Shown here: positions 2,134-39,829 of the stretch, piece after piece
How positions within the stretch are numbered: position 1 is the stretch's first letter
Layout: every line of letters begins with the position of its first letter
NCBI GenBank assembly: GCA_025059775.1
Contig: JANXCW010000006.1
Coordinates: 22,361 to 86,360 of the forward strand
Direction: 5' to 3'
Length of the DNA: 64,000 nucleotides
From: Armatimonadota bacterium
Lineage (GTDB): Bacteria; Sysuimicrobiota; Sysuimicrobiia; Sysuimicrobiales; Sysuimicrobiaceae
Notes under the pieces: generated by a model
The model's database searches: none
Told to the model about the DNA's origin: nothing
The model's input: only the letters and a program-made list of their open reading frames with translations
Made by a program: the position numbers and the translations under genes

Positions 2134-2154
2134 CGGTATAAAGGGGGAGGCAGC

Positions 2155-4315: not shown

Positions 4316-5674
<1,359 letters not shown>

Positions 5675-5704
5675 GGGCCGGTGGACGGGGAAGGAGGCGG
5701 GGAC

Positions 5705-6703: not shown

Positions 6704-6708
6704 CGGAG

Positions 6709-7674: not shown

Positions 7675-7683
7675 GGAGCGGAG

Positions 7684-9412: not shown

Positions 9413-9427
9413 ACACACCTCCCCCCG

Positions 9428-10366: not shown

Positions 10367-10478
10367 GCGGTTCCTCCTCCACGCCAAGCCTACCGTAACT
10401 CCCGTCCGGGTGCGGAAGGAGTTCTCGACCCCTGCATGCAATCCTCTCTGGTGGGATCCCGAACAGGGGAGGGAGGGT

Positions 10479-11354: not shown

Positions 11355-11434
11355 TCCAGATCGAGGCGGAACCAGCGACTTCCCCAACTCCGTAGCGTAG
11401 GTCAGGAGACGTGTCCAGTCGGAGGTGATTGGAG

Positions 11435-11683
11435 ATGTTGTGTCCAGTCTGCCAAGTGGAGCTACGGATCGCGGAGCGCAGCGGCATTGAGATCGACTAC
11501 TGCCCCAAGTGTCGGGGCGTGTGGTTAGACCGAGGTGAACTCGACAAGATCATCGAACGATCTCTGGGGACGTCTGAAATCTCCAGATACGGGGAAGGTC
11601 CGTATCCGGAACGATACTCGGAGATACACAAGCATCGGAGGAAGCGTAAGTCATTCCTGAGCGAGTTGTTTGACTTCGACTGA
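11435..11683 (+). CDS. Zinc-ribbon domain protein (CPxC...CPKCRGVWLD type)
   Basis: MLCPVCQVEL...DYCPKCRGVWLDRGELDKI motif. GGAGGTGA RBS. Local GC is about 53%, below the window average. Confidence 0.6.
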   Translation: MLCPVCQVELRIAERSGIEIDYCPKCRGVWLDRGELDKIIERSLGTSEISRYGEGPYPERYSEIHKHRRKRKSFLSELFDFD

Positions 11684-11684
11684 T

Positions 11685-12803: not shown

Positions 12804-13877
12804 CTATCGAGGCCCCCCCTCCAGCCGCCGCTTCAGCTCATCGATGACCACCACGGGATACGGATCCACGTCGTTCAGGTATGCGAGGTAAACACTGACG
12901 AGGTCACCGAACAGCACGAGCGAGGCAAGACGGCTCAGGGGGTCTTCTCCCCGGCTCCACACCTCATGGTAGCCGCTGGCCTTGTGGAAGGCAATCTCCC
13001 GGGTGATCTCCAGCCGCTGCACCAAGCGCGGCGGGTCCTCCCGATCCCGCAGCACCACCACCTCCAGCATCCCCTCCGGTTGCCCCGCAAGCGCCCATCC
13101 CACCGTCTCGTTGTGGTTGAGTTCCGGGAAGACGTGGGTGGCCGCGAACATCTTGCTGTTCTCGTTGAGCTGGGTCTTCCATCGCAGGGCCGCTGGCTCC
13201 GTGAAGCCACGGAGGGCATAGACCACGGGGACGTGTCCTGCCAGGGCCCTGGCCAGCCGCTTTGCGGGGTTCTCCGCCTCCGGGCGGTCCGGCCCCCACT
13301 CCCCCGCGAGTCCGGCGAGCACCGAAGCGGCCTCCGCCACCGCCGCTTCCTGCGGGGGAAGCACTCCCCACCGCTCCAGAACCGCCAACATGGGGGCGAA
13401 GAGATATCCGAGGGCCGCCCGGGGCGGGTACCCGGAGGGGATCCGTATCACGGGAACACCCTCCGACCGCGCCCACTCGTACAACACGCCTCCGGAGGTG
13501 ATGGCCACCCGCACCGCCCCTGCTTTGCCCGCGGCCTCGTAGGCGGCCAGCGTCTCCTCCGTGCTCCCGGAGTACGAACAGGCGAACGCCACGGTCTTCG
13601 GACCCACCCAGCGGGGAAGGGTGTAATCCTTTACCACCACCACCGGGATATCCGCCCGCTCGTACAGCAATCCCCGCAGCAGGTCCCCACCGATGCCGGA
13701 GCCTCCCATCCCCAGCACCAACACCTGCGCCACATCCGGAGGAGGCCCAAGCGGTGCTTCCCGTCCCAGCCAGTAGCCTTCCTGTAGGGTCTCGCCCAAG
13801 CGCAGCACGAGCCTCAGCATCCCTCGTGGGTCGAGGGCCCGGCACCGATCGGGGTCGTCCAGCAGTCCCCGCACCAT
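12804..13877 (-). CDS. Bifunctional phosphoglucose/phosphomannose isomerase (SIS-domain, archaeal-type PGI/PMI)
   Basis: SIS motif VLVLGMGGSGIGGDLL and a PGI_C-like C-terminus. The start is uncertain: the candidate ATG abuts the divergent gene's start. Confidence 0.7.
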   Translation of the reverse strand: MVRGLLDDPDRCRALDPRGMLRLVLRLGETLQEGYWLGREAPLGPPPDVAQVLVLGMGGSGIGGDLLRGLLYERADIPVVVVKDYTLPRWVGPKTVAFACSYSGSTEETLAAYEAAGKAGAVRVAITSGGVLYEWARSEGVPVIRIPSGYPPRAALGYLFAPMLAVLERWGVLPPQEAAVAEAASVLAGLAGEWGPDRPEAENPAKRLARALAGHVPVVYALRGFTEPAALRWKTQLNENSKMFAATHVFPELNHNETVGWALAGQPEGMLEVVVLRDREDPPRLVQRLEITREIAFHKASGYHEVWSRGEDPLSRLASLVLFGDLVSVYLAYLNDVDPYPVVVIDELKRRLEGGPR

Positions 13878-15772: not shown

Positions 15773-17551
15773 ATGCGGACCCCGCTACCGAATCCGGATC
15801 CTCTGGAGCTGCTCCGCAACCGCCTGGACATCACGGTGGTGCCTTTTACGGACCGCGGAAGCCGCATCCTTGTCCTTCGGGAACCGGGGGAATCCCGACT
15901 GCGGATCCACCTGTGCGAGCGATGGCCGAGGCTTACACAGGTGGAGGGCCACTACCGGATGCGCCCACCGCTGGTGAGCGGGCTGCAGTTCTTGGACGGC
16001 GGAGGAGCGTCCCTCTTCTGGAGGCTCGTGACGTATCCCCATAAGCTGGAGTTCCACACGCCCGTGGGGCTGTTCGAGCTGGCCTTTGATGGGCCAGAAC
16101 TGCTGGTGCTGCGACCTCCCCCCGGAAAGTGCGGGCTGCGGTTTTGGGTGCGGGCACAGGAGGCGGCCGCAGACCGGAGGGGCGGCACAACCCGGGGCGT
16201 GCGTCACATGGCCTACACCACCAATGCCCCTATCTGCCGCAACGAACTCCGACCGGAGGGCCCCAACCAGTGGCGCGTGGAGCTCTGGGTGGAGGCCACC
16301 CCGCAAGCTCAAATCACCCTGAACATCACGCCCCGGCTCGGGTTCGATCGCCGCATCCGGCCCTACGATCCGGTGGCGGAAGCGGAGCGGCGGTGGCGGG
16401 AGTGGTTCCAGGCGGTTCCGGAGGTGGACCTGCGCTTCCGGCCCACCTATGACTATGCGTGGTACCTCCTCCGTGCGGGCCTGCTGAGCACCCGGTACTA
16501 CCTGACCCGGGAAGCCCTGGTCCCCTCGAAGGTGCACTACGTGGGGCTCTGGCAGTGGGACGCCTTCTTCCATGCCCTTGCCTACCGGCACGTGGACCCC
16601 CTATTGGCCACAGATCAGTTCCGGGTCCTCTTCGACCACCAGCGGCCTGATGGTCGGCTACCGGACTGCGTCTTCGACGAAGGGATCGTGGACTACCTGG
16701 AGGAGCCGATCCCGGGTCCCGTCACCAAACCCCCTGTGGCGGGATGGGCGCTGTGGAAGGTATACGAGGCAATCCAGGACGTGGACTTCGTCGCGGAGCT
16801 GTACGAGCCCCTCTCCCGCTGGCAGCGGTGGTGGATGGAGCAGTGTGACACGGACGGGGACGGACTTCCCGAGTACCACCATCCCTTCTCCTCGGGCCTG
16901 GACGACAGCCCCCTGTGGGATTTCGGCATGCCCGTGGTCTCGCCCGACCTTCCCACCTACCTGTGTCTGCAGGCGGAGGCATTGAGCCACATGGCCCGGC
17001 TGCTGGGCGAGGAGGAGGAGGCGGAGCGGTGGGAGGCGGAAGCGAATGCGCTCGTGCAGCGGATGGTGGAAAGGCTCTATGATCCGGACACCGGGATCTT
17101 CTGGGCCCATCGGCGGACCAGCCTGAGCTCGGAGCGTGTTCCCGTCCTCACTCCCCTGAGCCTCTTCCCTCTGTGGACGGGGCGTCTCCCAGAGGAGGTG
17201 GTGGAGCGGCTGGTGGGGATCCTCGTGGACCCCGAGCACTTCTGGACCTCCTATCCGGTTCCCAGCGTGGCCCGATCCGATCCCCGATATCGGCCGGACC
17301 GGATGTGGCGTGGACCCACGTGGATCAACCTGAACTACATGCTCATCGAGGGCCTGCTCCGGTGCGGCCGGCACACCGTAGCCCGGGCGCTGTGCGACCG
17401 GACCCTGGAGCTCGTGGCCCTGCACGCGGACATCAAGGAGTACTACCACCCCGAAACCGGCGCGGTACCGCCCGGGGCAGCCCCCGGGTTCGGGTGGTCC
17501 GCGGCGCTGTACGCGGACCTCGCCATTCGCCGGTCCAGGGGGGAAATTTAG
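15773..17551 (+). CDS. GH63-family glycosyl-glycerate hydrolase (mannosylglycerate/glucosylglycerate hydrolase-like)
   Basis: (alpha/alpha)6 glycosidase signature (GLWQWDAFFHALAY, GDGLPEYHHPFSSGLDDSPLWD, WRGPTWINLNYML). Start lies 10 nt after the gpgS stop. Confidence 0.65.
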   Translation: MRTPLPNPDPLELLRNRLDITVVPFTDRGSRILVLREPGESRLRIHLCERWPRLTQVEGHYRMRPPLVSGLQFLDGGGASLFWRLVTYPHKLEFHTPVGLFELAFDGPELLVLRPPPGKCGLRFWVRAQEAAADRRGGTTRGVRHMAYTTNAPICRNELRPEGPNQWRVELWVEATPQAQITLNITPRLGFDRRIRPYDPVAEAERRWREWFQAVPEVDLRFRPTYDYAWYLLRAGLLSTRYYLTREALVPSKVHYVGLWQWDAFFHALAYRHVDPLLATDQFRVLFDHQRPDGRLPDCVFDEGIVDYLEEPIPGPVTKPPVAGWALWKVYEAIQDVDFVAELYEPLSRWQRWWMEQCDTDGDGLPEYHHPFSSGLDDSPLWDFGMPVVSPDLPTYLCLQAEALSHMARLLGEEEEAERWEAEANALVQRMVERLYDPDTGIFWAHRRTSLSSERVPVLTPLSLFPLWTGRLPEEVVERLVGILVDPEHFWTSYPVPSVARSDPRYRPDRMWRGPTWINLNYMLIEGLLRCGRHTVARALCDRTLELVALHADIKEYYHPETGAVPPGAAPGFGWSAALYADLAIRRSRGEI

Positions 17552-17609: not shown

Positions 17610-18410
17610 GTGGCCTCAGCGATCCGCGGGGTGGTCACCACTGCCCTCGTTCTCCTGGGGGCGTATGCGGTGAACGGGATCGGCCGGAGGGTGGTGGAAC
17701 AGATCCTCCGTCCCCCGGAGGGTGCTCCCAACTACGCAGCCCGCCTGCAGCGGGCTCGCACCCTCCTCCCCCTCGCCTACGGGGCCATCCGCTACACGGT
17801 GTACTTCGTGGCAGGGATCATGGCCCTCCGCCAACTGGGGGTGGACCCCGCACCGCTGCTGGCCAGCGCGGGCGTGGCAGGTCTCGCCATCGGATTTGGG
17901 GCTCAGGCCCTGATCCGGGACAGCATCAGCGGGTTCTTCCTCCTGCTGGATGGCCTGATCCAGGTGGGGGATATCATCACCGTAGGACCGGAAACAGGGG
18001 TGGTGGAGCAGATCGGGTTGCGCACCACCCAGATCCGGCGGTTCACGGGCGAGGTGGTGACCATTCCCAACGGGGAGCTCACCCGGTTCCGGAACTACAC
18101 CCGGGGGCCTCTTCGGGCCATGCTCACCATCGGGGTGGGTCGCAAGGAGGACCTGCGGCGGGTGGGGGAGCTGCTGCATGAGGCGGTGGCGGGGTGGCGA
18201 CAGGATCACCCAGAGGCCGAGGCCGGGGAACCGGAGGTTCAGGCCCTCCTGGAGCTCGCTCCTCAAGTCCAGGTGCTGCGCCTGGTGGTGCCCGTGCAGC
18301 CCATGAGCCTATGGCGGGCGGAGCGGGAGCTGCGTCTACGGATCAAGGAGAGGTTGGAGGCCGCAGGCGTCGAACTGATCTCCATCGGCCCTTCGGAGAC
18401 GGTGGCATGA
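17610..18410 (+). CDS. Small-conductance mechanosensitive channel (MscS family)
   Basis: Three TM helices, then an MscS beta-domain motif (GDIITVGPETGVVEQIGLRTTQIRRFTGEVVTIPNGEL). Stop TGA overlaps the glgC ATG (ATGA). Confidence 0.8.
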   Translation: MASAIRGVVTTALVLLGAYAVNGIGRRVVEQILRPPEGAPNYAARLQRARTLLPLAYGAIRYTVYFVAGIMALRQLGVDPAPLLASAGVAGLAIGFGAQALIRDSISGFFLLLDGLIQVGDIITVGPETGVVEQIGLRTTQIRRFTGEVVTIPNGELTRFRNYTRGPLRAMLTIGVGRKEDLRRVGELLHEAVAGWRQDHPEAEAGEPEVQALLELAPQVQVLRLVVPVQPMSLWRAERELRLRIKERLEAAGVELISIGPSETVA

Positions 18411-19645
18411 AGGGTCCCTATCCGGGCGGAAGGCCGCGGACGCTGGGCATTATTCTGGCGGGAGGACGCGGGGAGCGGCTGCACCCTCTGACTCGGGACC
18501 GTAGCAAGCCCGCGGTCCCCTTCGGGGGCCGGTACCGGATCGTGGACTTCGTCCTCACGAACTTCATCCACTCCGGGATCTTCTCCCTCTACATCCTCGT
18601 GCAGTATAAGTCCCAGTCCCTCATCGACCACCTCCGGCATGGGTGGCGGGCCACGGGGCTCCACGAGGACCACTTCCTCTTGGTGGTCCCCCCCCAAATG
18701 CGGTGGGGCGAGGCGTGGTACCGGGGAACCGCGGACGCGGTCTATCAGAACCTTAACCTCGTCCGGGACTACGAGCCGGAGCTGGTGGCCATCTTCGGCG
18801 CGGACCACATCTACCGCATGGACATCTCCCAGATGATCGCCTTCCATCAGGAGGTGGGGGCCGACGCCACCGTGGCCGCTCTCCCGGTGCCCGTGGAGAA
18901 GGCGAGGGCCTTCGGCGTCCTCGAGGCGGACCCCGACGGCCGGGTGTGGCGGTTCGAGGAAAAGCCCCTAGAGCCCCGGGCCCTTCCGGGCCGTCCGCAA
19001 TACGCCCTGTGCTCCATGGGGAACTACATCTTCCATGCGGACGTCCTGGTGGAGGTGCTGGTGGAGGACGCCCAGCGTTCCACGGACCACGACTTCGGAC
19101 GCAGCATCCTCCCCGCCATGTTGGGCCGCTACCGGGTCTATGCGTACGACTTCCACACGAACCGCATCCCGGGCCTCAAACCCTATGAGGAGCCCGCGTA
19201 CTGGCGGGACATCGGCACCATCTTCGCCTACTGGGAAGCGCACATGGATCTGTTGGGCCCGCAACCCCGGTTCGACTTGCAGAACCCACAGTGGCCCATC
19301 CTGGGCGCGGCCTATCCCGGACCGCCCGCCCGCATCCTGCAGGGGGAGGTGTACGACACCCTCCTCGCGGAGGGCACCGTGGTGGAGGGCGGACGCATCC
19401 GAAGATCGATCCTCGGTCGGGGGGTGCACATCGACCCGGATGTGGAGATCGAGGAATCCGTGGTCATGGACTTCACCGTGGTGCGCCGGGGATGCAGACT
19501 CCGGCGGGTCATCGTGGATCGGTACAATATCCTCGAGCCCAACACCGTCATCGGGGAGGATCCGGAGGAGGACGCGCGCCGGTATCACCGGGACCGATCG
19601 GGAATCGTGGTCGTCCCCCGCGGCCCCACCCGGGCGCGGTTCTAG
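18407..19645 (+). CDS. glgC: Glucose-1-phosphate adenylyltransferase
   Basis: LGIILAGGRGERLHPLTRDRSKPAVPFGGRYRIVDFVLTNFIHSGI and a C-terminal left-handed beta-helix. Confidence 0.9.
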   Translation: MKGPYPGGRPRTLGIILAGGRGERLHPLTRDRSKPAVPFGGRYRIVDFVLTNFIHSGIFSLYILVQYKSQSLIDHLRHGWRATGLHEDHFLLVVPPQMRWGEAWYRGTADAVYQNLNLVRDYEPELVAIFGADHIYRMDISQMIAFHQEVGADATVAALPVPVEKARAFGVLEADPDGRVWRFEEKPLEPRALPGRPQYALCSMGNYIFHADVLVEVLVEDAQRSTDHDFGRSILPAMLGRYRVYAYDFHTNRIPGLKPYEEPAYWRDIGTIFAYWEAHMDLLGPQPRFDLQNPQWPILGAAYPGPPARILQGEVYDTLLAEGTVVEGGRIRRSILGRGVHIDPDVEIEESVVMDFTVVRRGCRLRRVIVDRYNILEPNTVIGEDPEEDARRYHRDRSGIVVVPRGPTRARF

Positions 19646-29539: not shown

Positions 29540-30598
29540 CTAGCCCCCCACCTCTCCGTGGAGGTTCGCCGCCTCCCGGGAAGCGAGGAGGGTCGGTACC
29601 GGCTCGGCGGAACGCAGCTGCCGGGCCGCCTCCTCCGGCGGAACCACATTGATGTAGAAGCCCGTGCCCCACTCGAATCCTGCCACCTGCGTAAGCCGCG
29701 GCATGATCTCCACGTGCCAGTGGTAGAAGTGGCCGGGGAAGGCATCGTAGGGTGCGGTATGCACGATGAAGTTGTACGGAGGGTTCTCGAGGACCGTGTG
29801 GAGCTTCCAGAGCGTGGTGCGGAGGGCGTCCGCGGCCTCCAGGAGCTCCTCGTCCCGCAGCTCGCCGAAGGAGGCCGCGTGGCGCTTGGGGACGATCCAT
29901 GTCTCGTATGGGAAGCGGGAGGCATAAGGTTCGTAGGCCACGAAGCCTTCGTTCTCGTACACCAGCCGATCGCCGCTACGCCGCTCCGCATCCAGCACAT
30001 CGCAATATAGACAGCGGGCCCGATCTGCGAAGTACCCCCGGGCCACCTCCAGCTCCTCCTCCGCCCGCCGGGGAAGGACCGGGAGGGCAATGAGCTGGGA
30101 GTGCGGGTGCGACAGGCTTGCGCCTGCGCTTCGTCCGTGGTTGCGGAAGAGCAGGGCGTATCGAAACCGGGGATCCCGGTCGAGATCCAGGTACCGCTCC
30201 CGGTACACCCACAGGACCTTGGCCACCTGTTCCTGGGACATGAGCCCCAGGTGCGTGTCGTGCTCCGGGGTCTCGATGATCACCTCGTGGGCTCCGACCC
30301 CGTCCATGTGCTCAAAGAGCGGCGCGCCCGCAGGCGCCAGCACTCCCTCGATGCGGAGGGCAGGGAACTTGTTGGGAACCACCCGCACCTCCCAACCGGG
30401 GGTATTGGGAGGACTCCCATCGGGTCGGAGGGCGAGAATTTCGGGTGGGGTCTCGGATTCCTTGCCCCAGCAGAAGGGGCAGCGGTTCCGGTTCTCCACC
30501 ACCTCCTTGGGTCGGACAAAGTCCGTGGGGCGCATGAGCCGATCCGTGGCGATGATCACCCACCGGCCGGAGATGGCGTCCCGTCGCAGCTCAGGCAC
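29540..30598 (-). CDS. GalT-like nucleotidyltransferase (galactose-1-phosphate uridylyltransferase / ADP-glucose phosphorylase family)
   Basis: GalT N-terminus ELRRDAISGRWVIIATDRLMRP. Zn site CPFC. HIT-like HxHxQ (HPHSQ). GTG start 2 nt after the glgA stop. Confidence 0.75.
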   Translation of the reverse strand: MPELRRDAISGRWVIIATDRLMRPTDFVRPKEVVENRNRCPFCWGKESETPPEILALRPDGSPPNTPGWEVRVVPNKFPALRIEGVLAPAGAPLFEHMDGVGAHEVIIETPEHDTHLGLMSQEQVAKVLWVYRERYLDLDRDPRFRYALLFRNHGRSAGASLSHPHSQLIALPVLPRRAEEELEVARGYFADRARCLYCDVLDAERRSGDRLVYENEGFVAYEPYASRFPYETWIVPKRHAASFGELRDEELLEAADALRTTLWKLHTVLENPPYNFIVHTAPYDAFPGHFYHWHVEIMPRLTQVAGFEWGTGFYINVVPPEEAARQLRSAEPVPTLLASREAANLHGEVGG

Positions 30599-30600
30599 CC

Positions 30601-32061
30601 TCAACGCCTCTTCTTCGCACGGGCTCGTTCGTACAGCTCCATGTACCGGCGCGCGGACCGGCTCCACGAGAAGTCCGCCCGCATCCCGGCCTGCACCAGT
30701 GTACGCCAGAGGGCGGGATTCCGGAACGCGTCCAGGGCCCGGCGGATGGCCTCCCACAGGGCATCCGGGGTGTACGCCTCGAACACGAACCCGTTGGCCT
30801 CCCCGCGGGCGATGGCCTCCGGGGTGGCGTCTATGATGCTGTCCGCCAGTCCCCCCGTGCGCCGGACCACGGGCACGGTCCCGTACCGGAGACTGTAGAG
30901 CTGGTTGAGGCCGGAGGGTTCGTACCGGGAAGGCATGAGGAACAGGTCACAGCCTGCCTCGATGCGGTGCGCGAGCCCTTCGTCGAACCCAATACGGACC
31001 CCCACGTTCCGTGGGTACCGTTGGGCCGCATCCGTGAAAGCAGCTTCGTACCTCGGATCCCCCATACCCAGCAGCACGAACTGCACGCCCGCGGCCACCA
31101 TCCGCTCCAGGCACTCCTGGACTAGGTCAAGCCCTTTTTGGTCCACCAGGCGCGTGACCATGCCCAGTAGCGGCACCTCGGGCTCATCCGGGAGCCCGAA
31201 CTCCGCCTGCAGGGCCCGCTTGCAGATGCGTTTCCCCGAGAGGTCCTCGAGCCCGTACCGGGCGGGGATGTAGGGGTCCATGCGGGGGTCCCAGACCGAG
31301 TAGTCCACCCCGTTCAGGACCCCGTAGAGGTCCTGGCTACGGGTGCGCAGCACCCCATCGAGTCCATACCCGAACTCCGGGGTCTGGATCTCCCGGGCAT
31401 AGGTCTCGCTCACGGTGCTGAGGAGATCCGCGGAGAGCAGCGCTCCCTTCATGAGGTTCAGAGAGCCGTAGAACTCCAGACGGGACCAGTACACCTCCTC
31501 GGGTAGGCCGGTCACGGGGAACTGCTCCCGGGGGAAGATTCCCTGATAGGCCAGATTGTGGATGGTGAAGAGGGTAGCCGTACCGCCGAGGACGGAGGCC
31601 CCACGTTCCACGGTGTCCAGGTAAATGGGGACCATGGCTGTGTGCCAGTCGTGGCAGTGAAAGACGTCCGGAACCCACCCTGCCAACCGGACCCAGGCGA
31701 GGGCCGCCCGGCACAGGAAGGTGAACCGATGCAGGTTGTCCCCGTAGTCCTGTCCCCTCTCCCCGTAGATCCCGGGCCGTCCGTAGTAGCCCAGGTGGTC
31801 CAGGAACCACACCGGGACCTTCCCGGCAAGGCTCCCCTCCCATATCCCGGCGAGCTCCCCCCGGCCCTCCACGGGTGCCGAGACCTCACCCACGCGCTTG
31901 AGTCCATGGCGTCCGGGGTCCACCGCAGCATACCGGGGCATCAGGACGCGCACGTCCACCCCCAGGTCACGGAGGGCAGGGGGAAGGGCTCCTGCCACAT
32001 CCGCAAGTCCCCCGGTCTTCGCGAAGGGAACCATTTCAGCCACCACGAAGAGTACCCGCAC
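30601..32061 (-). CDS. glgA: Glycogen synthase (ADP-glucose type, GT5)
   Basis: RVLFVVAEMVPFAKTGGLADV N-terminal motif and a GT-B C-domain. GTG start with GGAGGAGG RBS. Confidence 0.85.
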   Translation of the reverse strand: MRVLFVVAEMVPFAKTGGLADVAGALPPALRDLGVDVRVLMPRYAAVDPGRHGLKRVGEVSAPVEGRGELAGIWEGSLAGKVPVWFLDHLGYYGRPGIYGERGQDYGDNLHRFTFLCRAALAWVRLAGWVPDVFHCHDWHTAMVPIYLDTVERGASVLGGTATLFTIHNLAYQGIFPREQFPVTGLPEEVYWSRLEFYGSLNLMKGALLSADLLSTVSETYAREIQTPEFGYGLDGVLRTRSQDLYGVLNGVDYSVWDPRMDPYIPARYGLEDLSGKRICKRALQAEFGLPDEPEVPLLGMVTRLVDQKGLDLVQECLERMVAAGVQFVLLGMGDPRYEAAFTDAAQRYPRNVGVRIGFDEGLAHRIEAGCDLFLMPSRYEPSGLNQLYSLRYGTVPVVRRTGGLADSIIDATPEAIARGEANGFVFEAYTPDALWEAIRRALDAFRNPALWRTLVQAGMRADFSWSRSARRYMELYERARAKKRR

Positions 32062-32175
32062 AAACCTCCTCCCAGCTGGCCGGGCACTGCCTGGGATAAT
32101 GCCACGGAGCAGACCCCGGGGCAACCCCAGGAAGGGAGGGGGTTTGGCCTGTGGGGGACCACGAGAGATCGAGAT

Positions 32176-32200
32176 TTTTCGCGATTGGACGCGAAATTCC
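32176..32200. promoter_or_regulatory. 7-bp perfect palindrome TTTCGCG-n6-CGCGAAA (candidate operator) in the glgA / HD-GYP divergent intergenic region
   Basis: Seen directly. A second palindrome CCGGAAA-n5-TTTCCGG lies at about 32328-32346. A TTGACA hexamer lies at 32222. Confidence 0.25.
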
Positions 32201-32482
32201 GGGTTTCCTGGCATTTTTCGCTTGACAGAAGGCTCTGGATAGTACAAATTCCCCTTAGAAGGCCGGCGAGGGAAGCGACGGCCAACTTTCAGGTCCTGCC
32301 TGGAAAACGGAATACCTTCCCTATTGACCGGAAAGGGTGTTTCCGGTCCAGGCGGATTTCTAAATTGTCGAAATCAACCTTTTACTCTCCCGCCGGCAGT
32401 ATAGAGCAAATTTCGTGCCAGACTAAATAGGTTCCATGGAAACTTGAATACGAACTTCTCGAACGAAGGAGGGGGGGATGTG

Positions 32483-32676: not shown

Positions 32677-32833
32677 TTTGACCTGGATGTAGGTGAGCCT
32701 CATTTGATCATGTTGGTAGGGTGAAGTTGGATCCTTCCCCTGCCGTTTAATTGTTCCCTAAAAAGACAAAATAATGGCCCCAAAATTGCTTACCCAGGGT
32801 CCTACTGGAAATCGCTCTCCTAACAGGTGGACG

Positions 32834-34222
32834 ATGAAGAGATCGTTGCAGTTCTTTGTGGGCCTCTGCATTCTAGGGGGCGCTGCAGTTTTGGGCCAAG
32901 TAATCTACGTGTTCTCCCAAACCAGCAGTCCTTACCACCAAACAGATGTCGCAGCTCTCATGCTTCTGACGTTCTTAGGTATCCTAAGTGAACTTAAGCC
33001 AGTCCAATATTATTTTGGCCCTGAGAACAAAACTGAAGTAACCCTTGGGCTTGCCGTTTTTCTGCCTACTTTAATGTTGTACGGATGGACGTTTGCAGTT
33101 CTTGTCGCAATGCTCACTTCCATCTCTACTGATCTTTATGAAGGTAAACCTTGGTATAAAACTTTGTTCAATGCCGGAAACCATGCTATAGCTACGTGGC
33201 TGGCAGGCCACGTATTCGAGGCTATTGCTGGCGGACATGCCTTACCACAGGTTCTGGCTTTGCGGCTTCTTGGCGGTGTCATCGCTGGAATTACATTTTT
33301 CGTTGTGAACATTGGCCTCCTCAGTATTGTAATTTCATTAGCCGCTTCTATTTCTCTTCGAGACACTCTTCTACTTAATGCACAGCTCATAACACCTGTC
33401 TTTGTTTCAATGGTCGGGCTTGCAGTTGTTGGATCAGTGATATGGACAATTCACCCTCTGCTTGTTGTCCTCCTCGCCCCCGCCGCCATGATGACCAAGC
33501 TCTCCTACGCCAACTATGTCCAGCTCCGCATCGAGACCGACAACTTCCTTCACGCCCTCGCGGAGGCGGTGGACGCCCGGGATCCCTACACGGCCCAGCA
33601 CTCCCATCGGGTGGCGGAACTCTGCCGGGCCATCGCCCGCCGCCTGCAGCTCCCGGACCGTGAGGTGAACCGTCTCTACGCTATCGCCCGGGTGCACGAC
33701 GTAGGCAAGATCGCGGTCCGGGACGCCATCCTCCTCAAGCCCGCTCCCCTCAGCGCCGAGGAGCTCAAGGAGATGCGGGGGCACGTGGAGGCGGGTGCCC
33801 GCATCCTGGGTCACATCAGCCTGTACCGGGATGCCCTCGACATCCTCCTCCAGCACCACGAGCGGCTGGATGGGTCCGGGTATCCGAAGGGACTACAGGG
33901 GGAGGAGATCGGCTTATCTGCCCGCATCCTCGCGGTGGCCGATGCCTACGATGCCATGACCACCCTACGCCCCTACCGGCCCGCCAAAAGCCCGGAGGAG
34001 GCTGTACGGGAGTTGTACCGGTTGGCCGGTAAACAGTATGATCTCTCCGTGGTGCGGGCCCTGGAGGACGAACTTATGGAACGCCGGGTGCTTGAGAAAC
34101 CCGTCCTGGCCGCTACCGAATCGGTTTCTGAGATCCTGGAGGCCGTTGATCCCGATGCTCCTCCTGCTCCCCCTCGCGTTGTCCCTCTGCGTCGGATGGA
34201 TCCGGGGCGGAAGTCTTCGTAA
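32834..34222 (+). CDS. Membrane-anchored HD-GYP phosphodiesterase (multi-TM sensor N-domain + HD-GYP)
   Basis: HD motif (HDVGKIAV) and GYP motif (HHERLDGSGYPKGL). N-terminal half has 6-7 predicted TM helices encoded at about 45% GC. ORF frame opens at 32774; the start at 32834 (MKRSLQFF, AGGTGG upstream) is preferred. Confidence 0.8.
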   Translation: MKRSLQFFVGLCILGGAAVLGQVIYVFSQTSSPYHQTDVAALMLLTFLGILSELKPVQYYFGPENKTEVTLGLAVFLPTLMLYGWTFAVLVAMLTSISTDLYEGKPWYKTLFNAGNHAIATWLAGHVFEAIAGGHALPQVLALRLLGGVIAGITFFVVNIGLLSIVISLAASISLRDTLLLNAQLITPVFVSMVGLAVVGSVIWTIHPLLVVLLAPAAMMTKLSYANYVQLRIETDNFLHALAEAVDARDPYTAQHSHRVAELCRAIARRLQLPDREVNRLYAIARVHDVGKIAVRDAILLKPAPLSAEELKEMRGHVEAGARILGHISLYRDALDILLQHHERLDGSGYPKGLQGEEIGLSARILAVADAYDAMTTLRPYRPAKSPEEAVRELYRLAGKQYDLSVVRALEDELMERRVLEKPVLAATESVSEILEAVDPDAPPAPPRVVPLRRMDPGRKSS

Positions 34223-35108
34223 CCTAGCGGAATCCGAGCTCCGCCTGCCCTGGATGGCCCTCCTCGCCATCCTCACGCAACTCCTGATCTTCGACCCTAC
34301 CTCGCGCCTCGTGCCGGTGCGGTTCCCCGTTGTTCCCGTACACGCCCTGTCCTACCTCCTGCTGGCGGTCTTTATCGGGGCGAACCGACGGCTTCCGGGG
34401 ATGTGGCTGCTAGCCGCGGGATTCCTGGCCAACGCCTTGGTGATCCTCAGCAACGGCGGGTACATGCCCGCCTCGGAGGAGGCCCTGCGGGCTGCGGGCC
34501 GGTGGACGCTCCTGCAGGAGGCAGGAGGAACCTACAACAACTCCTCCCTCATCGGGCCGCAGACCCGGCTGTGGTTTCTGGCGGACGTCTTCGCCATCCC
34601 TGCTGGACTTCCGTTTGCGAACGTTTTCAGCCTGGGGGATGTGCTGTTAGCCCTAGGGGTCCTCGTCCTTGTCCCGGGTCTGATGAGAGCCCGACCCCTG
34701 CGGCCGGAGGCGCGGGTAGCTGCAGCCGTGGCAGGAGGCTTTCTTGTGGGGTACCTTGCGGGTAACCTGGAAGCCCCCGCCGCCCTCTCAGCGGTGAGCG
34801 CACCTCAGCCTTCTTCCACCCCCCGCCTCGTCCAGAAATCTTCTCCACCCCCTCTCTCCCCTATGGCTGAACCGGCCACCCCTGCTCCTCAAGTGCTTTA
34901 CACCGTCCAGGTGGGCGCTTACCGGCATTCCGCAAACGCGCGGACGATGGTGAAGCGGCTCGCGGAGGACGGCTACAGGGCCCGCATCCTCTCCGGTAGC
35001 CTCCACCGGGTGGTGGTAGGGAAATTCGAGACTGAGCGGCAGGCGCACCGCCTCGCGGATCTCCTCGGCCGATCCGGTTATCCCACCTACGTGCGCCGCC
35101 TGCGCTAA
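34155..35108 (+). CDS. DUF5317-like membrane protein with C-terminal SPOR (peptidoglycan-binding) domain
   Basis: C-terminal SPOR fold (YTVQVGAYRHSANARTMVKRLAEDGYRARI...YVRRL). N-terminal multi-TM region. Start uncertain (34155 overlaps the HD-GYP end; alternative 34254). Confidence 0.6.
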   Translation: MLLLLPLALSLCVGWIRGGSLRNLAESELRLPWMALLAILTQLLIFDPTSRLVPVRFPVVPVHALSYLLLAVFIGANRRLPGMWLLAAGFLANALVILSNGGYMPASEEALRAAGRWTLLQEAGGTYNNSSLIGPQTRLWFLADVFAIPAGLPFANVFSLGDVLLALGVLVLVPGLMRARPLRPEARVAAAVAGGFLVGYLAGNLEAPAALSAVSAPQPSSTPRLVQKSSPPPLSPMAEPATPAPQVLYTVQVGAYRHSANARTMVKRLAEDGYRARILSGSLHRVVVGKFETERQAHRLADLLGRSGYPTYVRRLR

Positions 35109-36466
35109 TCCCTCACGAACACCAGCACCAAGTCGTTCACGTTGGTCCCGGTGGGACCCGTGCGCAGCAGGTCCCCTACAGCGTCTAGGCAGGGATAGGC
35201 ATCGTTGTCCGCGAGGGAACGCCGGGGATCGTATCCCAGGGTCCGGGCCCGGACGGCCGTGGTCCCGTCCGCCACGCCGCCCGCCGCGTCTGTGGGGCCA
35301 TCCGTCCCGTCCGTAGCCAAACTCACCACCAACACCCCCCTTACCCCTTCTAGGGCCACGGCCGCGCTGAGGGCGAGCTCCTGGTTGCGGCCGCCTTTCC
35401 CCCTGCCCCGTACCGTCACCGTGGTCTCCCCGCCCAAGAGGAGGCAGGCGGGCAGCGGCAAAGGCCGGCCGGCCCTGCGTTCCTCGCGTGCCAGAGCCGC
35501 CACCACCCTTCCCACCTCCCGGGCTTCTCCCTCGAGGAACGTGGTGAGGACGAAGGTGTGGTACCCCAGGGTCTTGGCTTGCCCGGCCGCCGCCTCCACG
35601 GCTTGGGCGAGGTTTCCGACGATCACCGCATGCACCCGCTCGAAGGCGGGATCTCCGGGTTTAGGCGTCTCCGGGATCTCCCCGGCCATCCCCTGCTCCA
35701 GGTGGCGGCGCACGGCTTCCGGTATTTCCGCCAACAGGCCATACCGTTCCAGGATCTCCACCGCGTCGCGGTACGTGGTGGGATCTGGGGCAAGCGGACC
35801 CGAGGCGATGGTGTTCAGGTGGTCGCCCAGCACGTCGCTCAGCACCAGGGCCACCACCGTGGCCGGAAACGCGGCCTTTGCGAACCACCCACCCTTGATG
35901 GCAGACAGATGCTTGCGCACCGCGTTGAGCTCCCCGATGGTGGCGCCGGTGCGGAGCAACAGGTCCGTGGTACGCACCTTGTCCTCCAGGGTGAGGCCCG
36001 GAGCAGGCAGCGCAAGCAAGGCGGACCCCCCTCCCGAGACGAGGCAGAGCAGGAGATCACCCTCCCCGGCCTGCCGCGCAAGGTCGAGGGCGCGGCGCGC
36101 CGCTTCCTCCCCCCTCACATCTGGCAGGGGATGCCCAGCCTCCACCACCTCCACGTGCCGCAGCCCAAGACCGTGTCCTTCCTTGGTCACCACGAGTCCT
36201 CCGGAAATCCGGTCCCCCAGGAGCTCCTCCACCGCCTGCGCCATGGCCACGCTGGCTTTTCCGAAGCCGATCACGAGGACCCGGTCGTAGGCCTCCAGGG
36301 GATACGCACGGTCTGCGACGCGCAGCATCCCGTCCTCCATGCGCAAGAACCTGCGGACCGCTTCCCGGGCGTCTACCGCCCGAAGGGCCGATTGGAGGAT
36401 GCAGGCCGCATCCCGACGTAGTTCCGGATCCTCCCCCACCCGTAGCCACCGACTGTCCCGCCACAT
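35105..36466 (-). CDS. Glycerate kinase (MOFRL / GckA family, glycerate 2-kinase type)
   Basis: DUF4147 + MOFRL architecture (VVLVIGFGKASVAMAQ, CLVSGGGSALL, GRGGRNQELALSAA). ATG 3 nt after the upstream GT stop. Confidence 0.8.
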   Translation of the reverse strand: MWRDSRWLRVGEDPELRRDAACILQSALRAVDAREAVRRFLRMEDGMLRVADRAYPLEAYDRVLVIGFGKASVAMAQAVEELLGDRISGGLVVTKEGHGLGLRHVEVVEAGHPLPDVRGEEAARRALDLARQAGEGDLLLCLVSGGGSALLALPAPGLTLEDKVRTTDLLLRTGATIGELNAVRKHLSAIKGGWFAKAAFPATVVALVLSDVLGDHLNTIASGPLAPDPTTYRDAVEILERYGLLAEIPEAVRRHLEQGMAGEIPETPKPGDPAFERVHAVIVGNLAQAVEAAAGQAKTLGYHTFVLTTFLEGEAREVGRVVAALAREERRAGRPLPLPACLLLGGETTVTVRGRGKGGRNQELALSAAVALEGVRGVLVVSLATDGTDGPTDAAGGVADGTTAVRARTLGYDPRRSLADNDAYPCLDAVGDLLRTGPTGTNVNDLVLVFVRD

Positions 36467-36468
36467 GC

Positions 36469-37680
36469 CTACGCCCGGTTCCACAGCGCCAGCAGATACG
36501 GCTTGTGCACCTCGAAGGCCTCCGCCTGCCGCTCCACCACCGTCTCCGCTTCCCGCGTGGTCATCCCCTCCGTCTCCTGCACGAAGGCTGCCACCCGGCC
36601 AAAGTACAGGGGAACCAGGGCTTCCAGGAGTTCACCGGCCTTCATCCGGTGGAAGGCCACGGCAAAGGCATAGCAGATCCGCGCCCAGAGGGGATCCGGG
36701 AGTTCCGAAACCTCCATGCGGGAGGCCAGCGTCGCGAACTCCTCCGGTCCCAGCACCTCCCGCCACATCTCCCCGAAGCGGGAGAACCCGCTCCGGAATC
36801 CTTCCACGAGGGCTGCGCGGTTCACGGGAACCGGCTCGGGCTCTACCTCCACGGGTTCGCCTACCAGAGGGGCAGGCACACTGCCCACGATCCGCCGCCA
36901 CCGATCCGTGTACGTCTCCATCAGGTTGAAGAGGGTTCCCACCACCTGGCGGAACATGGGACCGAGGTGCGCGGCCGGATCCCGGGGATCGTGCAATTTT
37001 ACGCCAAGATGCGCCTGGACCACCCGGTAGCCTCCGTTGAGGGCGGTGGTGGTCATCCAGATGTCCACCCCGAACCGCGCCACGTCCCCCTCCCAAACGG
37101 GTGCCTGCAGCGCCCGTGCCGCGAATTCTCCGGAGAAGGCGAAGTCTCCACCGATGGGCTGGCGTACGCGCACACCGTACAGGGCCCTCGTCATAGGGTA
37201 GGCTAGGTGGTTGGTGATGGTGCCGTCGTACTTGTGCCGCACGTAGTACGGCGCCACGTACTCCGCCTCGCCCCGGACCACGGGCGCAAGCAGCCGCTCC
37301 ATCCACCACGGTGCGATGGACCGAAGGTCCGCATCCAGGGTGGCGCAGGCCCGGGCGCCCAGAAGGCGGGCAGCCTCGAAAACGGCCCGCACCGCGCTCC
37401 CCTTTCCCGGGGGACCCTCGTACGGCGTGGTGAGCACCGCGACGCCCTCCGGAACCCGGGCGCTCAAAGCCAGCTGCGGGGTGCCATCCGTGGATCCTCC
37501 GTCGACGTTGAGGATCACGATGCGAAGACCCGGGAACGACCCTCGGGCGCCCTCCGCGGCTGCTTCCACCACGTAGCGGATGGTGGAGGCGTTGTGGTGG
37601 CTGGGAATGCCGATGAGGAGGTCCGCTTGCCCGACGCGCAGGAGTTCGCCCCGGGCCATTTCCGAAAGCGCTCGGCTCAT
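36469..37680 (-). CDS. GT-A glycosyltransferase homologous to glucosyl-/mannosyl-3-phosphoglycerate synthase (GT81-like), second copy in window
   Basis: Collinear with GpgS (LLIGIPSHHNASTI vs LPALNEEETI, GKGSAVRAVFEAARLLGARACATLDADL, YVAPYYVRHKYDG, QPIGGDFAFSGEFAARAL). ATG overlaps the MBL gene TGA. Confidence 0.65.
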   Translation of the reverse strand: MSRALSEMARGELLRVGQADLLIGIPSHHNASTIRYVVEAAAEGARGSFPGLRIVILNVDGGSTDGTPQLALSARVPEGVAVLTTPYEGPPGKGSAVRAVFEAARLLGARACATLDADLRSIAPWWMERLLAPVVRGEAEYVAPYYVRHKYDGTITNHLAYPMTRALYGVRVRQPIGGDFAFSGEFAARALQAPVWEGDVARFGVDIWMTTTALNGGYRVVQAHLGVKLHDPRDPAAHLGPMFRQVVGTLFNLMETYTDRWRRIVGSVPAPLVGEPVEVEPEPVPVNRAALVEGFRSGFSRFGEMWREVLGPEEFATLASRMEVSELPDPLWARICYAFAVAFHRMKAGELLEALVPLYFGRVAAFVQETEGMTTREAETVVERQAEAFEVHKPYLLALWNRA

Positions 37681-38447
37681 TCCCCTACCCTCCACCACGC
37701 GCCCCCTGTATTGGGCCGGACGGTTTCCACCGCCACCTGGTCGATGCCCTCCCGGTGCAGGGCCGTGATCACGATGTCCCGGGCAAGGGGGGCGAGGTTG
37801 TTGACCTCGCTGAGGTGCACGAGGACCACCCGCTGAGGTTTTCCCGTGTGGAGCCGCACGCTCAGGCGCGCGGCCGCGTCGTTGCTCAGGTGGCCCCGGG
37901 GGCTCATGAGCCGCCGTTTCACCGCGGCGGGGTATGGACTTACCCCCAGCAGCCGCGGGTCGTAGTTCGCCTCCAGGAGCACCAGGTCCGCGCCCATGGC
38001 CCGCTCCACGAAGGCCTCATCGGCCCTGCCTAGGTCCGTAGCGATCACCACCCGCCTTCCCTCCCCCTCGATGACGAAAGCCACGGGATCCGCGGCGTCG
38101 TGCGAGACGGGGACCGCCTCCACCAGCAGCTCCCCGATCCGGAAAGGCCGTAGGTTCTCGAACCGTTCGTGTCCTGCCCGCAAGTCAGGGCAGGCCCGCA
38201 GGGTTCGCTCGTTCGCAAGGACCACGGTTCCCATAGCCCGGGCCACGGACGCGGCGCCCCGGGTATGATCGTCGTGCTCGTGGGTGAGGAGAACCGCGTC
38301 CAGCCGTGCGGGGGCGATCCCGAACCGTGCCAGCCACCGGCGGATGGCCCGGGCGGGAAGTCCCGCGTCCACCAGTACCCGCGTGGATCCCCCCTCCACC
38401 AGCACCGCGTTTGCTGTGCTGCCGCTTGCCAGGACATACACCCGCAT
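37677..38447 (-). CDS. MBL-fold metallo-hydrolase (Lactamase_B_2-like)
   Basis: HxHxDH motif (LLTHEHDDHTRGA) with downstream His/Asp ligands. 256 aa. GGAGG RBS spans the GT4 stop. Confidence 0.75.
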   Translation of the reverse strand: MRVYVLASGSTANAVLVEGGSTRVLVDAGLPARAIRRWLARFGIAPARLDAVLLTHEHDDHTRGAASVARAMGTVVLANERTLRACPDLRAGHERFENLRPFRIGELLVEAVPVSHDAADPVAFVIEGEGRRVVIATDLGRADEAFVERAMGADLVLLEANYDPRLLGVSPYPAAVKRRLMSPRGHLSNDAAARLSVRLHTGKPQRVVLVHLSEVNNLAPLARDIVITALHREGIDQVAVETVRPNTGGAWWRVGE

Positions 38448-38452
38448 TCGAC

Positions 38453-39679
38453 CTACCTCCCTGCCGCCGCGGGGTGCAGGAGTCGATCCAGCAGCGGCTG
38501 CATCCTCTCGTGGAAGACGCGATCCCAGGTAAAGCGCTCGAGGATCCTCCGACGCAGTGCACTCTGCGGGTTCTGGGCGAGGTCCCTGAGGATTTCCCGG
38601 GCGATCTCCTCCGGCGAGTCCTGGGGAGGGAAGAACCGCACGTGAGGGCCTGCCACCTCCTGCAGGGCCGGAATCGCGGTGCAGAAGACCGGCACACGCA
38701 TCAGTCCCGCCTCCGCCACCGGGAGCCCGAACCCTTCCTGGACGCTCGTGAGGAGCACCGCATCCGCCATCAGGTAGAGGTCGCCAACCATGCGGGCAGT
38801 ACACCGCACCCCAAGTTCTGCAAGGAACACGCAGTGCGCCCTCAGGCCGAGTGTGTCCCGCAGCGCAGCCAGCTCCCCGAGGTAGCTCCGGTTGGCGGCG
38901 GTGTGGGCTCCGGGAGGTCCCGTGACTACCAGGAGCGGAGCAGCGCCCGCATCCCGGATGGCCGCGGTGATGCGCACCGCGAGTTCCAGGTTCTTGCGCC
39001 GGGTGACCCGTACGGGCGTGAGGAGGACGGGGAACCGATCCGGGATCCGCAGCCGCTCCAGGAGCGTCCGGGTCCGTGGCTGTAGGGGATGCAAGGACTC
39101 CAGGGAAACCCCCGGTGGGATCACCGGTACCTTCTCGGGCTCCACCCCGAGGACTCGGATCAGGAGATCCCGCACCGCCTCGCTGACGGCCACATAGGTG
39201 ATCTCCGGCCGCGGCGTCCGCAGTAGGCTCCAGGGGTATTCCGGCCGCATCCGAGAGGCCACCGCAGGATCCGCCCAGCTGAGGTCGTGAGTCCACGCCA
39301 CCATCCGAGCCCACGGGAAGCGGTCCAGGAGACGGTGCAGGGCCGCGGTGAGGGGGAGGTTTTTATCTAGGGTGAACACGTTGTGCACGAGAAGGAGGCA
39401 GTTCTGAACGTACGCGGTAAGGTCCTGCACGATCCGGTCCCGCACCCGCTCAAAGGGCCGCGGATCTCCCCGCTCCATGGCCCGGTGTGCGGCCTGAATC
39501 TCGGGGTGGCGGCCGTAGAGGAGCGGCAACAGGGTATGCCCTTCCTCCTTTCCCCCCCGACCCGTGAGGATCCGGACCCGGTACCCCGCGGCCCGGAGCA
39601 AGCGGGCTTGCTCCGCGAGCACGCCTTCCACTCCGCCCACCACCGGCGGGGCCGTGTAATGGAGGAGGACGATCTCCAT
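38453..39679 (-). CDS. GT4-family (GT-B) glycosyltransferase
   Basis: N-terminal MEIVLLHYTAPPVVGGVEGV typical of GT4, and a C-terminal EGFGLPVAEAGLMRVPVFCTAIPA motif (E-x7-E region). Confidence 0.75.
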   Translation of the reverse strand: MEIVLLHYTAPPVVGGVEGVLAEQARLLRAAGYRVRILTGRGGKEEGHTLLPLLYGRHPEIQAAHRAMERGDPRPFERVRDRIVQDLTAYVQNCLLLVHNVFTLDKNLPLTAALHRLLDRFPWARMVAWTHDLSWADPAVASRMRPEYPWSLLRTPRPEITYVAVSEAVRDLLIRVLGVEPEKVPVIPPGVSLESLHPLQPRTRTLLERLRIPDRFPVLLTPVRVTRRKNLELAVRITAAIRDAGAAPLLVVTGPPGAHTAANRSYLGELAALRDTLGLRAHCVFLAELGVRCTARMVGDLYLMADAVLLTSVQEGFGLPVAEAGLMRVPVFCTAIPALQEVAGPHVRFFPPQDSPEEIAREILRDLAQNPQSALRRRILERFTWDRVFHERMQPLLDRLLHPAAAGR

Positions 39680-39754: not shown

Positions 39755-39829
39755 GCGGGTGTAGCTCAGGGGTAGAGCGTCGGCCCCCCAAGCCGAAGGC
39801 CGCGGGTTCGAATCCCGTCGCCCGCTCCA
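39755..39829 (+). tRNA. tRNA-Gly (anticodon CCC)
   Basis: Hand-folded cloverleaf. Acceptor GCGGGTG/CGCCCGC, D-arm GCTC-AGGGGTA-GAGC, anticodon stem TCGGC/GCCGA with loop CCCCCAA, T-arm GCGGG-TTCGAAT-CCCGT, discriminator T, encoded CCA. TGcTACAAT extended -10 lies 12 nt upstream. Confidence 0.8.

Follow-up and report, generated by a model that had tools for sequence, protein, structure and literature searches.

The DNA analysed here, hereafter the window, is a 64,000-nucleotide stretch of contig JANXCW010000006.1 from an Armatimonadota bacterium, and on its minus strand four co-directional genes form a compact operon whose products are, in 5'-to-3' order, a GT4 glycosyltransferase, an MBL-fold metallo-hydrolase, a GT-A glycosyltransferase and a glycerate kinase. 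This order follows from the open reading frame (ORF) listing and the reverse-strand sequence, and the features concerned are these:

38453-39679, minus strand: GT4 glycosyltransferase of GT-B fold, 408 amino acids (ATG at 39679, TAG at 38453)
38456-38460, minus strand: GGAGG ribosome-binding site of the MBL gene, read from the sequence, 8 nt 5' of the MBL ATG and within the 3' end of the GT4 gene
37677-38447, minus strand: MBL-fold metallo-hydrolase, 256 amino acids (ATG at 38447, TGA at 37677)
36469-37680, minus strand: two-domain GT-A glycosyltransferase, 403 amino acids (TAG at 36469)
35105-36466, minus strand: MOFRL-family (class II) glycerate kinase, 453 amino acids (ATG at 36466)
39755-39829, plus strand: tRNA-Gly(CCC), called by ARAGORN (Rfam tRNA, 68.6 bits), a divergent boundary marker outside the operon

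The junctions between the four genes are tight throughout: a 5-nt gap (gtcga) separates the GGAGG-bearing end of the GT4 gene from the MBL gene, the MBL TGA shares the tetranucleotide ATGA with the GT-A ATG at 37680-37677, and the GT-A TAG is followed by 'gc' and then by the kinase ATG at 36466. Pfam assigns the GT4 protein to Glycos_transf_1, Glyco_trans_1_4 and Glyco_transf_4, the MBL protein to Lactamase_B_2 and Lactamase_B, the GT-A protein to Glycos_transf_2 only (a generic GT2 match), and the kinase to DUF4147 (6.8e-87) and MOFRL (1.3e-38). A scan for promoters and terminators gave no promoter-like or terminator-like site inside the four-gene block, and Rfam returned no element inside the operon, its sole match being the tRNA. 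An earlier model-made reading of the sequence (the first-pass annotation) had described four co-directional, tightly packed minus-strand genes, and the ORF listing, the sequence and the Pfam classes agree with it; its placement of the operon behind a tRNA-Gly gene holds insofar as the tRNA adjoins the operon on its upstream side, 75 nt from the GT4 start codon, but the tRNA is a plus-strand gene that diverges from the operon and is not kept in relatives, where a GlcD-like FAD oxidase occupies that place.

The same four-gene order recurs at five other loci (L081-L084 and L088), where the MBL/GT-A and the GT-A/kinase junctions each overlap by 1 nt in database gene calls, and is recovered by tblastn at three more (L001-L003). 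These relatives carry the labels Armatimonadota or candidate division GAL15, and their GT-A proteins are 57-62% identical to that of the window, a distance at which the retention of both order and overlaps argues for conserved packing and not for chance. The neighbourhood conservation that the first-pass annotation had put forward as a check is thus found among relatives but in one lineage only, to which the complete set is confined among the loci sampled.

On the NCBIfam model for GpgS, NF010496, the GT-A protein reaches 51 bits, where the cut-off is 262, and NF040724 gives no match. A profile built from 21 sequences of its family (A1) finds, among solved structures, GpgS first (1.9e-10), then Rubrobacter MpgS (7e-5) and Rhodothermus MgS (1e-3). 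Lys93, Asp116/Asp118, Asp206 and His230 are invariant in this profile and align with GpgS Lys114, Asp134/Asp136, Glu232 and His258; they represent the PGKG lysine, the DxD motif, the acidic residue of FGxD and the histidine of K-x-H-D. In architecture the protein resembles MgS, with a GT-A domain followed by a C-terminal helical domain, at an identity of 17%. The window protein gives no hit to the Pfam family MGS_GT (PF21969), and its relatives score 23-27 bits (gathering score 27). An hhalign comparison with MgS, of 70% probability and over the GT domain only, places Arg148, Asp152, Ile155 and Thr156 on MgS Arg131, Asp135, Ile138 and Thr139, of which Arg131 is reportedly a glycerate-binding residue (Flint et al. 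2005). The carboxylate of glycerate is bound in MgS by Ile138/Thr139, which are equivalent to GpgS Val186/Thr187 (PMC2581804). With this carboxylate clamp and the catalytic residues kept, the GT-A protein has the appearance of a retaining glycosyltransferase with a binding site for the glycerate carboxylate.

What sets it apart from enzymes using 3-phosphoglycerate is the acceptor loop, which we compared across sampled family members, 40 co-resident paralogues, the GpgS encoded elsewhere in the window, and MgS. The GT-A family has a short D-G-T-I-T loop and MgS has D-A-M-I-T, whereas the GpgS-type motif is G-R-V-T (R-A-A or R-V-N in two paralogues), and the intact GpgS-type paralogues, of both the actinobacterial and the Methanococcoides types and including the window GpgS, keep the arginine within a longer loop. 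The GT-A protein lacks this arginine, which is common to all 3-phosphoglycerate users examined. A family member 46% identical to it over the full length (P0303) bears the JGI product name glucosylglycerate synthase, and a protein annotated as Ggs has been placed in GT81 (PMC8790579). The Persephonella protein does not appear in the best 120 matches to a vent-derived family member (L049). On these grounds the window protein is quite probably a single-step glycosyl-glycerate synthase of the Ggs/MgS type, and such an enzyme, accepting glycerate itself, requires no dephosphorylation step. We also considered 2-phosphoglycerate as its acceptor and ruled it out, given the blocked 2-OH and a loop without the phosphate-associated arginine.

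The wider family is very large, with at least 8,000 candidates in protein searches, under labels of metagenome-assembled genomes (MAGs) that include Nitrospira, anammox Planctomycetota, Chloroflexota, Deltaproteobacteria, Acidobacteriota, Aminicenantes and Armatimonadota. A genome scan yielded 594 confirmed relatives, of which 80 loci were retained as the basis of the neighbour counts; these are approximate, resting on crude ORF calling and single-linkage clustering with clusters named by NCBIfam, except that kinases were counted by tblastn. Crude ORF calls were wrong in high-GC loci, where tblastn and database gene calls were relied on. A GpgS paralogue accompanies the GT-A gene at half of these loci (40/80), mostly directly upstream, and an MpgP-family HAD phosphatase (TIGR01486, 243 bits) at 32; a small mechanosensitive-channel-like gene lies directly 3' at 18, an MggS-like GT4 (NF041101, 207 bits, full length) directly upstream at 10, a sugar ABC transporter beside it at 10 and a MOFRL glycerate kinase near it at 10, with GlgA near it at five and a GalT-like gene at four. 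The channel-like protein has about 235 amino acids and matches the C-terminal part of NF033912 (95 bits, cut-off 100), and its pairing with the GT-A gene suggests a conserved couple of synthase and release valve; it lies at about 9250-9970 in L013, L014, L025, L026, L032, L033, L036, L041, L045, L046, L051, L056, L061, L063, L075, L076 and others. At L050 a 388-residue protein (6816-7982, plus strand), encoded directly upstream of the Ggs-like gene and carrying the motifs STDGMITW, IEQPLGGELV and DWGIDTAY, is apparently, from its sequence, a genuine GT78 mannosylglycerate synthase homologue.

For the GT4 protein, too, the context in other phyla is informative. Full-length relatives at 39-40% identity occur in two Chloroflexota MAGs (L004 and L009) and an unclassified one (L028), in each case with a USP-GpgS fusion as the next gene downstream; for the L004 protein, from Anaerolineae, the identity is 40%. 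A histidine phosphatase gene stands 3' of GpgS in L004 and L028, and in L004 and L009 an MggS-like GT4 and a GT-A gene follow downstream, the GT-A gene being divergent in L028. Such orthologues inside glucosylglycerate loci of other phyla point to the window GT4 as a second glycosyltransferase of this solute system, and we regard it as a candidate second-sugar transferase acting on glucosylglycerate or, like MggA, on glucosyl-3-phosphoglycerate. It is not an MggS orthologue: on the MggS model NF041101, with its cut-off of 640, the match covers residues 78-242 and reaches 33 bits, and the protein forms its own clade, separate from the MggS-like GT4 of L004, which scores 207 bits over its full length and is 26% identical to the window protein over about 290 residues.

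Some 20 kb from the operon, the window holds a second cluster, a canonical one for glucosylglycerate:

13876-15762, plus strand: fusion of a USP domain and GpgS, 628 amino acids (Pfam Usp and Glycos_transf_2; motif GGGRVTEL)
15773-17551, plus strand: GH63 / MGH1-like glycoside hydrolase (Pfam MGH1-like_GH, 8.6e-80, and Glyco_hydro_63)
17610-18410, plus strand: MscS-type mechanosensitive channel (Pfam MS_channel_2nd and MS_channel_1st)
18194-19645, plus strand: GlgC-like nucleotidyltransferase (Pfam NTP_transferase, 2.3e-58, and LbH_GLGC), its true start probably downstream of 18194

The USP-GpgS protein is 48% identical to a paralogue in L060, and its homologue in L004 scores 388 bits on NF010496 (cut-off 262); to judge by these matches it is the window's canonical 3-phosphoglycerate-dependent glucosyl-3-phosphoglycerate synthase and part of the same solute system as the operon. 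The GH63 protein is a candidate glucosylglycerate/mannosylglycerate hydrolase, and hence a candidate source of glycerate for the kinase, and the GlgC-like enzyme likely supplies ADP-glucose. Taken together, the genes of the window would encode both two-step and one-step synthesis, a second glycosyltransferase, hydrolysis, salvage of glycerate and probably of glucose, a release valve and ADP-glucose supply.

The remaining two operon genes have a history of their own. The kinase is, by its sequence, clearly a MOFRL (class II) glycerate kinase: besides DUF4147 and MOFRL it matches the structures 2B8N (a putative glycerate kinase of T. maritima, 8e-113) and 1X3L (3e-112), and scores 246 and 198 bits on the NCBIfam glycerate 2-kinase models, below their lineage-specific cut-offs (for the archaeal model, 246 against 550). 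Characterised MOFRL kinases reportedly yield 2-phosphoglycerate (Yang et al. 2008; Bartsch et al. 2008), and by analogy the same product is expected here. In four loci of other lineages (L011, L061, L075 and L080) a glycerate kinase gene lies directly upstream of and co-directional with the GT-A gene, and in L058 the two are one gene apart; this order is unlike that of the window, and the link of the kinase to the synthase is independent of the window lineage.

The MBL protein shows the motif HxHxDH with downstream His, Asp and His ligands, and its nearest structures belong to a clade resembling PhnP and RNase Z, although its match to the PhnP model TIGR03307 reaches 34 bits (cut-off 272) and its gene neighbours are the kinase, GlgA and GalT, with no phn genes. 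The clade includes a PhnP-family diphosphatase, and PhnP-family enzymes can, going by the title of PDB entry 6B9V, hydrolyse phosphomonoesters; because the protein belongs to this clade of phosphoesterases, a phosphatase role is chemically possible. Its gene travels with the kinase and not with the glycosyltransferases. Two further pairs of genes downstream of the kinase help to trace this association:

32774-35108, plus strand: MASE9-HD (HD-GYP-like) protein and DUF5317-SPOR protein, between the kinase and GlgA and in opposite orientation
29540-32247, minus strand: GlgA glycogen synthase (about 32061-30601), then a GalT-like hexose-1-phosphate nucleotidyltransferase (30598-29540), both located by tblastn

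By tblastn the window GlgA is 47.5% identical to that of L039, and the GalT-like protein 43% identical to that of L070. In other Armatimonadota (L085, L086, L087 and L089) an operon of MBL, kinase, GlgA and GalT-like genes occurs with neither the GT-A nor the GT4 gene; its MBL proteins are 53-57% identical to the window MBL, and its MBL/kinase junction is a 4-nt overlap in L085-L087. The GlgA and GalT-like pair lies 3' of the MBL and kinase genes at these four loci and 3' of the complete four-gene set in L081 and L083. Relative to this block, the window lineage has the GT-A gene between MBL and kinase, the GT4 gene upstream, and the HD-GYP/DUF5317 pair before GlgA. The GlgA and GalT-like pair of the window is therefore the ancestral downstream part of the MBL-kinase block, in which MBL was already coupled to the kinase before both glycosyltransferase genes were inserted around it, and the similarity of the MBL proteins at loci lacking both glycosyltransferases suggests an unchanged function that does not depend on them. 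The four-gene block without glycosyltransferases spans 5001-9803 in L085, 5001-9749 in L086, 5001-9708 in L087 and 6001-10646 in L089, and in L085 and L086 4-nt overlaps link MBL, kinase and GlgA.

In light of these results we propose, with a probability of roughly 55%, that the operon is specific to this lineage and serves a sugar-glycerate compatible solute of the glucosylglycerate type, as a variant of a system already known. Gene structure, fold, motifs, family context and synteny history are shown by the data, whereas the acceptor and the donor, the step assigned to GT4 and the way the flux runs are what we infer. The GT-A enzyme would transfer hexose from a nucleoside-diphosphate hexose onto the 2-OH of D-glycerate, giving hexosyl-glycerate with no phosphorylated intermediate; the donor is probably ADP- or UDP-glucose, because GlgC, GlgA and GalT-like genes lie nearby. 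The GT4 enzyme would most likely add a second hexose, either to glucosylglycerate or to glucosyl-3-phosphoglycerate from the window's separate GpgS, yielding a diglycosyl-glycerate resembling MGG or GGG. As stress falls, the GH63 hydrolase and the kinase, from what is known of their families, may return the solute carbon to metabolism, with the MOFRL enzyme converting D-glycerate to 2-phosphoglycerate, back to glycolysis, and limiting the free glycerate pool, and the MBL protein would be the older partner of this kinase, a phosphoesterase of the PhnP/RNase Z type.

Several observations weigh against this proposal. If kinase and synthase were active at once, encoding them in one translationally coupled operon would be awkward for metabolism, since the former consumes the acceptor of the latter, and the MBL protein is left without a role although its stop codon overlaps the GT-A start. 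Assignment of the GT-A protein to the Ggs family draws on structure, on the analogy between operons and on a product name given by JGI, and the donor sugar could be glucose or mannose. In Chloroflexota the window-type GT4 gene adjoins GpgS and not Ggs, an adjacency that suits a free acceptor no better than a phosphorylated (MggA-like) one. Finally, no homologue of MpgP-type HAD or histidine phosphatases was found in the 64-kb window, so that the GpgS product has no local phosphatase; for the same reason a phosphatase role for the MBL protein stays alive as a minority reading.

One form of that minority reading, which we consider unlikely, builds on the older association of MBL and kinase and on the phosphoesterase clade of the former: the two would be a hitherto unrecognised couple of phosphoester hydrolase and kinase setting the free D-glycerate pool, recruited here to feed or drain the one-step synthase, with the MBL enzyme either releasing D-glycerate from phosphoglycerate or dephosphorylating glucosyl-3-phosphoglycerate. 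If true, this couple would explain where Ggs and MgS obtain D-glycerate, and an MBL-fold enzyme would join the HAD and histidine-phosphatase solutions.

Equally doubtful is a mixed route, in which an MggA-like GT4 would act on glucosyl-3-phosphoglycerate from the distant USP-GpgS, the MBL protein would be a non-canonical phosphatase of the mono- or diglycosyl intermediate, and Ggs and the kinase would form a non-phosphorylating branch and a glycerate salvage. The position of the window-type GT4 always directly 5' of GpgS in the three MAGs named above, two of them with a histidine phosphatase after GpgS, speaks for it, as does the MBL gene taking the place after GT4 in the window lineage, where 64 kb hold neither a HAD nor a histidine phosphatase, and the phosphomonoester hydrolysis that the 6B9V title credits to PhnP-family enzymes. 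These points are offset by the MBL, kinase, GlgA and GalT-like block, which predates the glycosyltransferase insertions and whose MBL protein has diverged so little at loci without them, and by the fact that a canonical phosphatase could lie in the genome outside the 64-kb window.

A mosaic operon with no common pathway is an improbable reading of the same order. Here MBL, kinase, GlgA and GalT would be an older housekeeping block for carbon storage and glycerate/serine catabolism, into which the glycosyltransferase genes came by rearrangement, their spacing reflecting genome compaction. The synteny history of the MBL-kinase block and the restriction of the four-gene set to one lineage suit this view, and the HD-GYP/DUF5317 pair, likewise inserted, indicates that the region tolerates insertions. 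However, kinase and GT-A genes became neighbours independently, and in another arrangement, in MAGs of Planctomycetota, Nitrospirota and Zixibacteria and in one labelled Burkholderiales; the kinase is present at 10 of the 80 loci against an estimated chance of about 0.4% for a single-copy gene falling within about six genes; and relatives at about 60% identity keep the overlaps on either side of the inserted GT-A gene.

Less probable still is the route of the first-pass annotation, by which phosphoglycerate made from glycerate by the kinase is glycosylated by the GT-A enzyme in the manner of GpgS or MpgS, then freed of its phosphate by the MBL protein and extended by GT4 with a second hexose. 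The four translationally coupled genes, a GT-A catalytic core detectably related to GpgS, the MBL protein's place in a phosphoesterase clade with a PhnP-family diphosphatase, and the absence of a canonical phosphatase from the window are all compatible with it. The GT-A protein, however, lacks the arginine of the GRVT motif of 3-phosphoglycerate users and has the MgS loop and two-domain fold instead; 2-phosphoglycerate, the product of characterised MOFRL kinases, has its 2-OH blocked; and 3-phosphoglycerate is abundant and needs no dedicated kinase. Pairs of MBL and kinase genes moreover occur without either glycosyltransferase, and GT-A and kinase genes occur together in other lineages without any MBL gene: tblastn found no MBL homologue at 77 GT-A loci outside the window lineage. 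What survives of that annotation is the MOFRL identity of the kinase, which its domains and both structural matches confirm, and the link to glycosyl-glycerate solute metabolism, upheld by the GT-A motifs, the GT4 orthologues and the kinase; its GT81-like GT-A protein stands as regards a catalytic core related to GpgS but not as regards the GpgS model, on which the score is far too low. Its phosphoglycerate route through an MBL phosphatase is not supported, in view of the acceptor loop and fold, the name of P0303 and the MBL-kinase pairs lacking glycosyltransferases, and in place of an undescribed pathway with a non-canonical phosphatase we see a variant of a known solute system with a one-step synthase. 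A reverse reaction of the GT-A enzyme, from glucosylglycerate and ADP to ADP-glucose and glycerate so as to feed GlgA and the kinase, was rejected as the main explanation on a rough thermodynamic estimate.

The proposed solute operon can be set beside several characterised systems. Ggs of Persephonella marina (EC 2.4.1.268; Fernandes et al. 2007, J Bacteriol 189:4014) reportedly converts ADP-glucose and D-glycerate to glucosylglycerate in a single step and is encoded beside gpgS and an MpgP-type gpgP. The window GT-A protein is like it in being a GT-A enzyme of the divalent-cation type, in the name borne by its relative P0303 and in an acceptor motif that fits the use of free D-glycerate. Its family lies with gpgS at 40 and with MpgP-type genes at 32 of 80 loci, but the window copy, unlike P. 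marina Ggs, is encoded between MBL and kinase genes and behind a GT4 gene, with GpgS about 20 kb off and no MpgP in the window. With Rhodothermus marinus MgS (GT78; PDB 2BO4) it shares the two-domain fold and the equivalents of Arg131, Ile138 and Thr139, but at 17% identity, with a core closer to GT81 and a context that favours glucose over mannose. GpgS (GT81) is closest by profile, and its catalytic residues and Val/Ile-Thr clamp for the carboxylate recur in the window protein; the latter differs in lacking the GRVT arginine, in a shorter acceptor loop and in an extra C-terminal helical domain, and true GpgS paralogues exist alongside it, one of them in the window.

Mannosylglucosylglycerate is made in Petrotoga mobilis and Rhodopirellula baltica by GpgS, MggA and MggB or by Ggs and MggS (PMC3736172). 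The operon shares with these routes a glycerate-glycosylating GT-A enzyme and a GT4 enzyme for a second hexose; unlike theirs, its GT4 is not an MggS orthologue but a member of its own clade, one that pairs with GpgS in Chloroflexota. We know of no MBL enzyme in mannosylglucosylglycerate pathways, and R. baltica MggB, which we considered as a possible one, is ruled out because it is HAD-type, as are the known MggB phosphatases. In glucosylglycerate catabolic clusters, which combine a GH13_18 phosphorylase with glycerate kinase, or contain GH63, the usual interpretation of the kinase is salvage of released glycerate. The window resembles them in the kinase linkage and in its MGH1-like GH63 hydrolase but differs in the translational coupling of its kinase to an enzyme of biosynthesis, and no glucosylglycerate phosphorylase gene was noticed in the annotated parts of the window; elsewhere, such phosphorylase genes are often accompanied by glycerate kinase (PMC7178133). 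The MBL protein falls in the same clade as PhnP, RNase Z and ElaC (COG1235; PDB 3G1P, 6B9V, 1ZKP and 2CBN), from which its low PhnP score, its lack of phn context and its kinase partner distinguish it.

The kinds of enzyme involved are thus known, and what is new is the composition of the operon, the occurrence of a family with the MgS fold in glucosylglycerate loci of many phyla, and the pairing of MBL and kinase. The operon overturns nothing established on glycosyl-glycerate pathways; it does place a very large family, almost always annotated just 'glycosyltransferase', in sugar-glycerate solute metabolism with an MgS fold. If the proposed activity holds, solutes of the glucosylglycerate type and their dual one-step and two-step synthesis would occur widely among bacteria of environmental importance that are for the most part uncultured, and annotation pipelines could name these GT-A genes. 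To our knowledge such dual synthesis has so far been described for Persephonella only.

A few further features of these loci deserve mention. An N-terminal extension of about 290 residues is found, in several phyla, on actinobacterial-type GpgS, namely that of the window and of L004 (4083-5942), L009 (4677-6599), L020 (5298-7166) and L060 (9250-11082); Pfam identifies it as Usp in the window copy, which hints at nucleotide- or stress-dependent regulation of GpgS. Just upstream of the window's GpgS cluster, on the opposite strand, lie genes for a MalK-like ABC ATPase and a ROK-family protein (9428-12791, minus strand). In a Planctomycetota MAG (L011, about 1-8771) and an anammox Scalinduaceae MAG (L080, about 3000-10850), co-directional genes encode MpgP, GpgS, a putative flavodiiron-type protein (MBL-like plus flavodoxin, judged by motifs alone), the MOFRL kinase, the Ggs-like GT-A enzyme and a putative GH15/GH63-like glycosidase; tblastn did not detect the flavodiiron-type protein as a homologue of the window MBL protein. 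Divergent upstream of GT4, where the window has tRNA-Gly and a MoaA-like gene, three of the relatives with the full gene set encode the GlcD-like FAD-linked oxidase (FAD_binding_4 and FAD-oxidase_C; L081 3377-4732, L083 3324-4679 and L088 1758-3086, all minus strand), a candidate D-2-hydroxyacid dehydrogenase, for glycolate, D-lactate or glycerate, that could be tied to acceptor supply. The HD-GYP-like/DUF5317 pair is kept at the same position in these three loci, there without the SPOR annotation.

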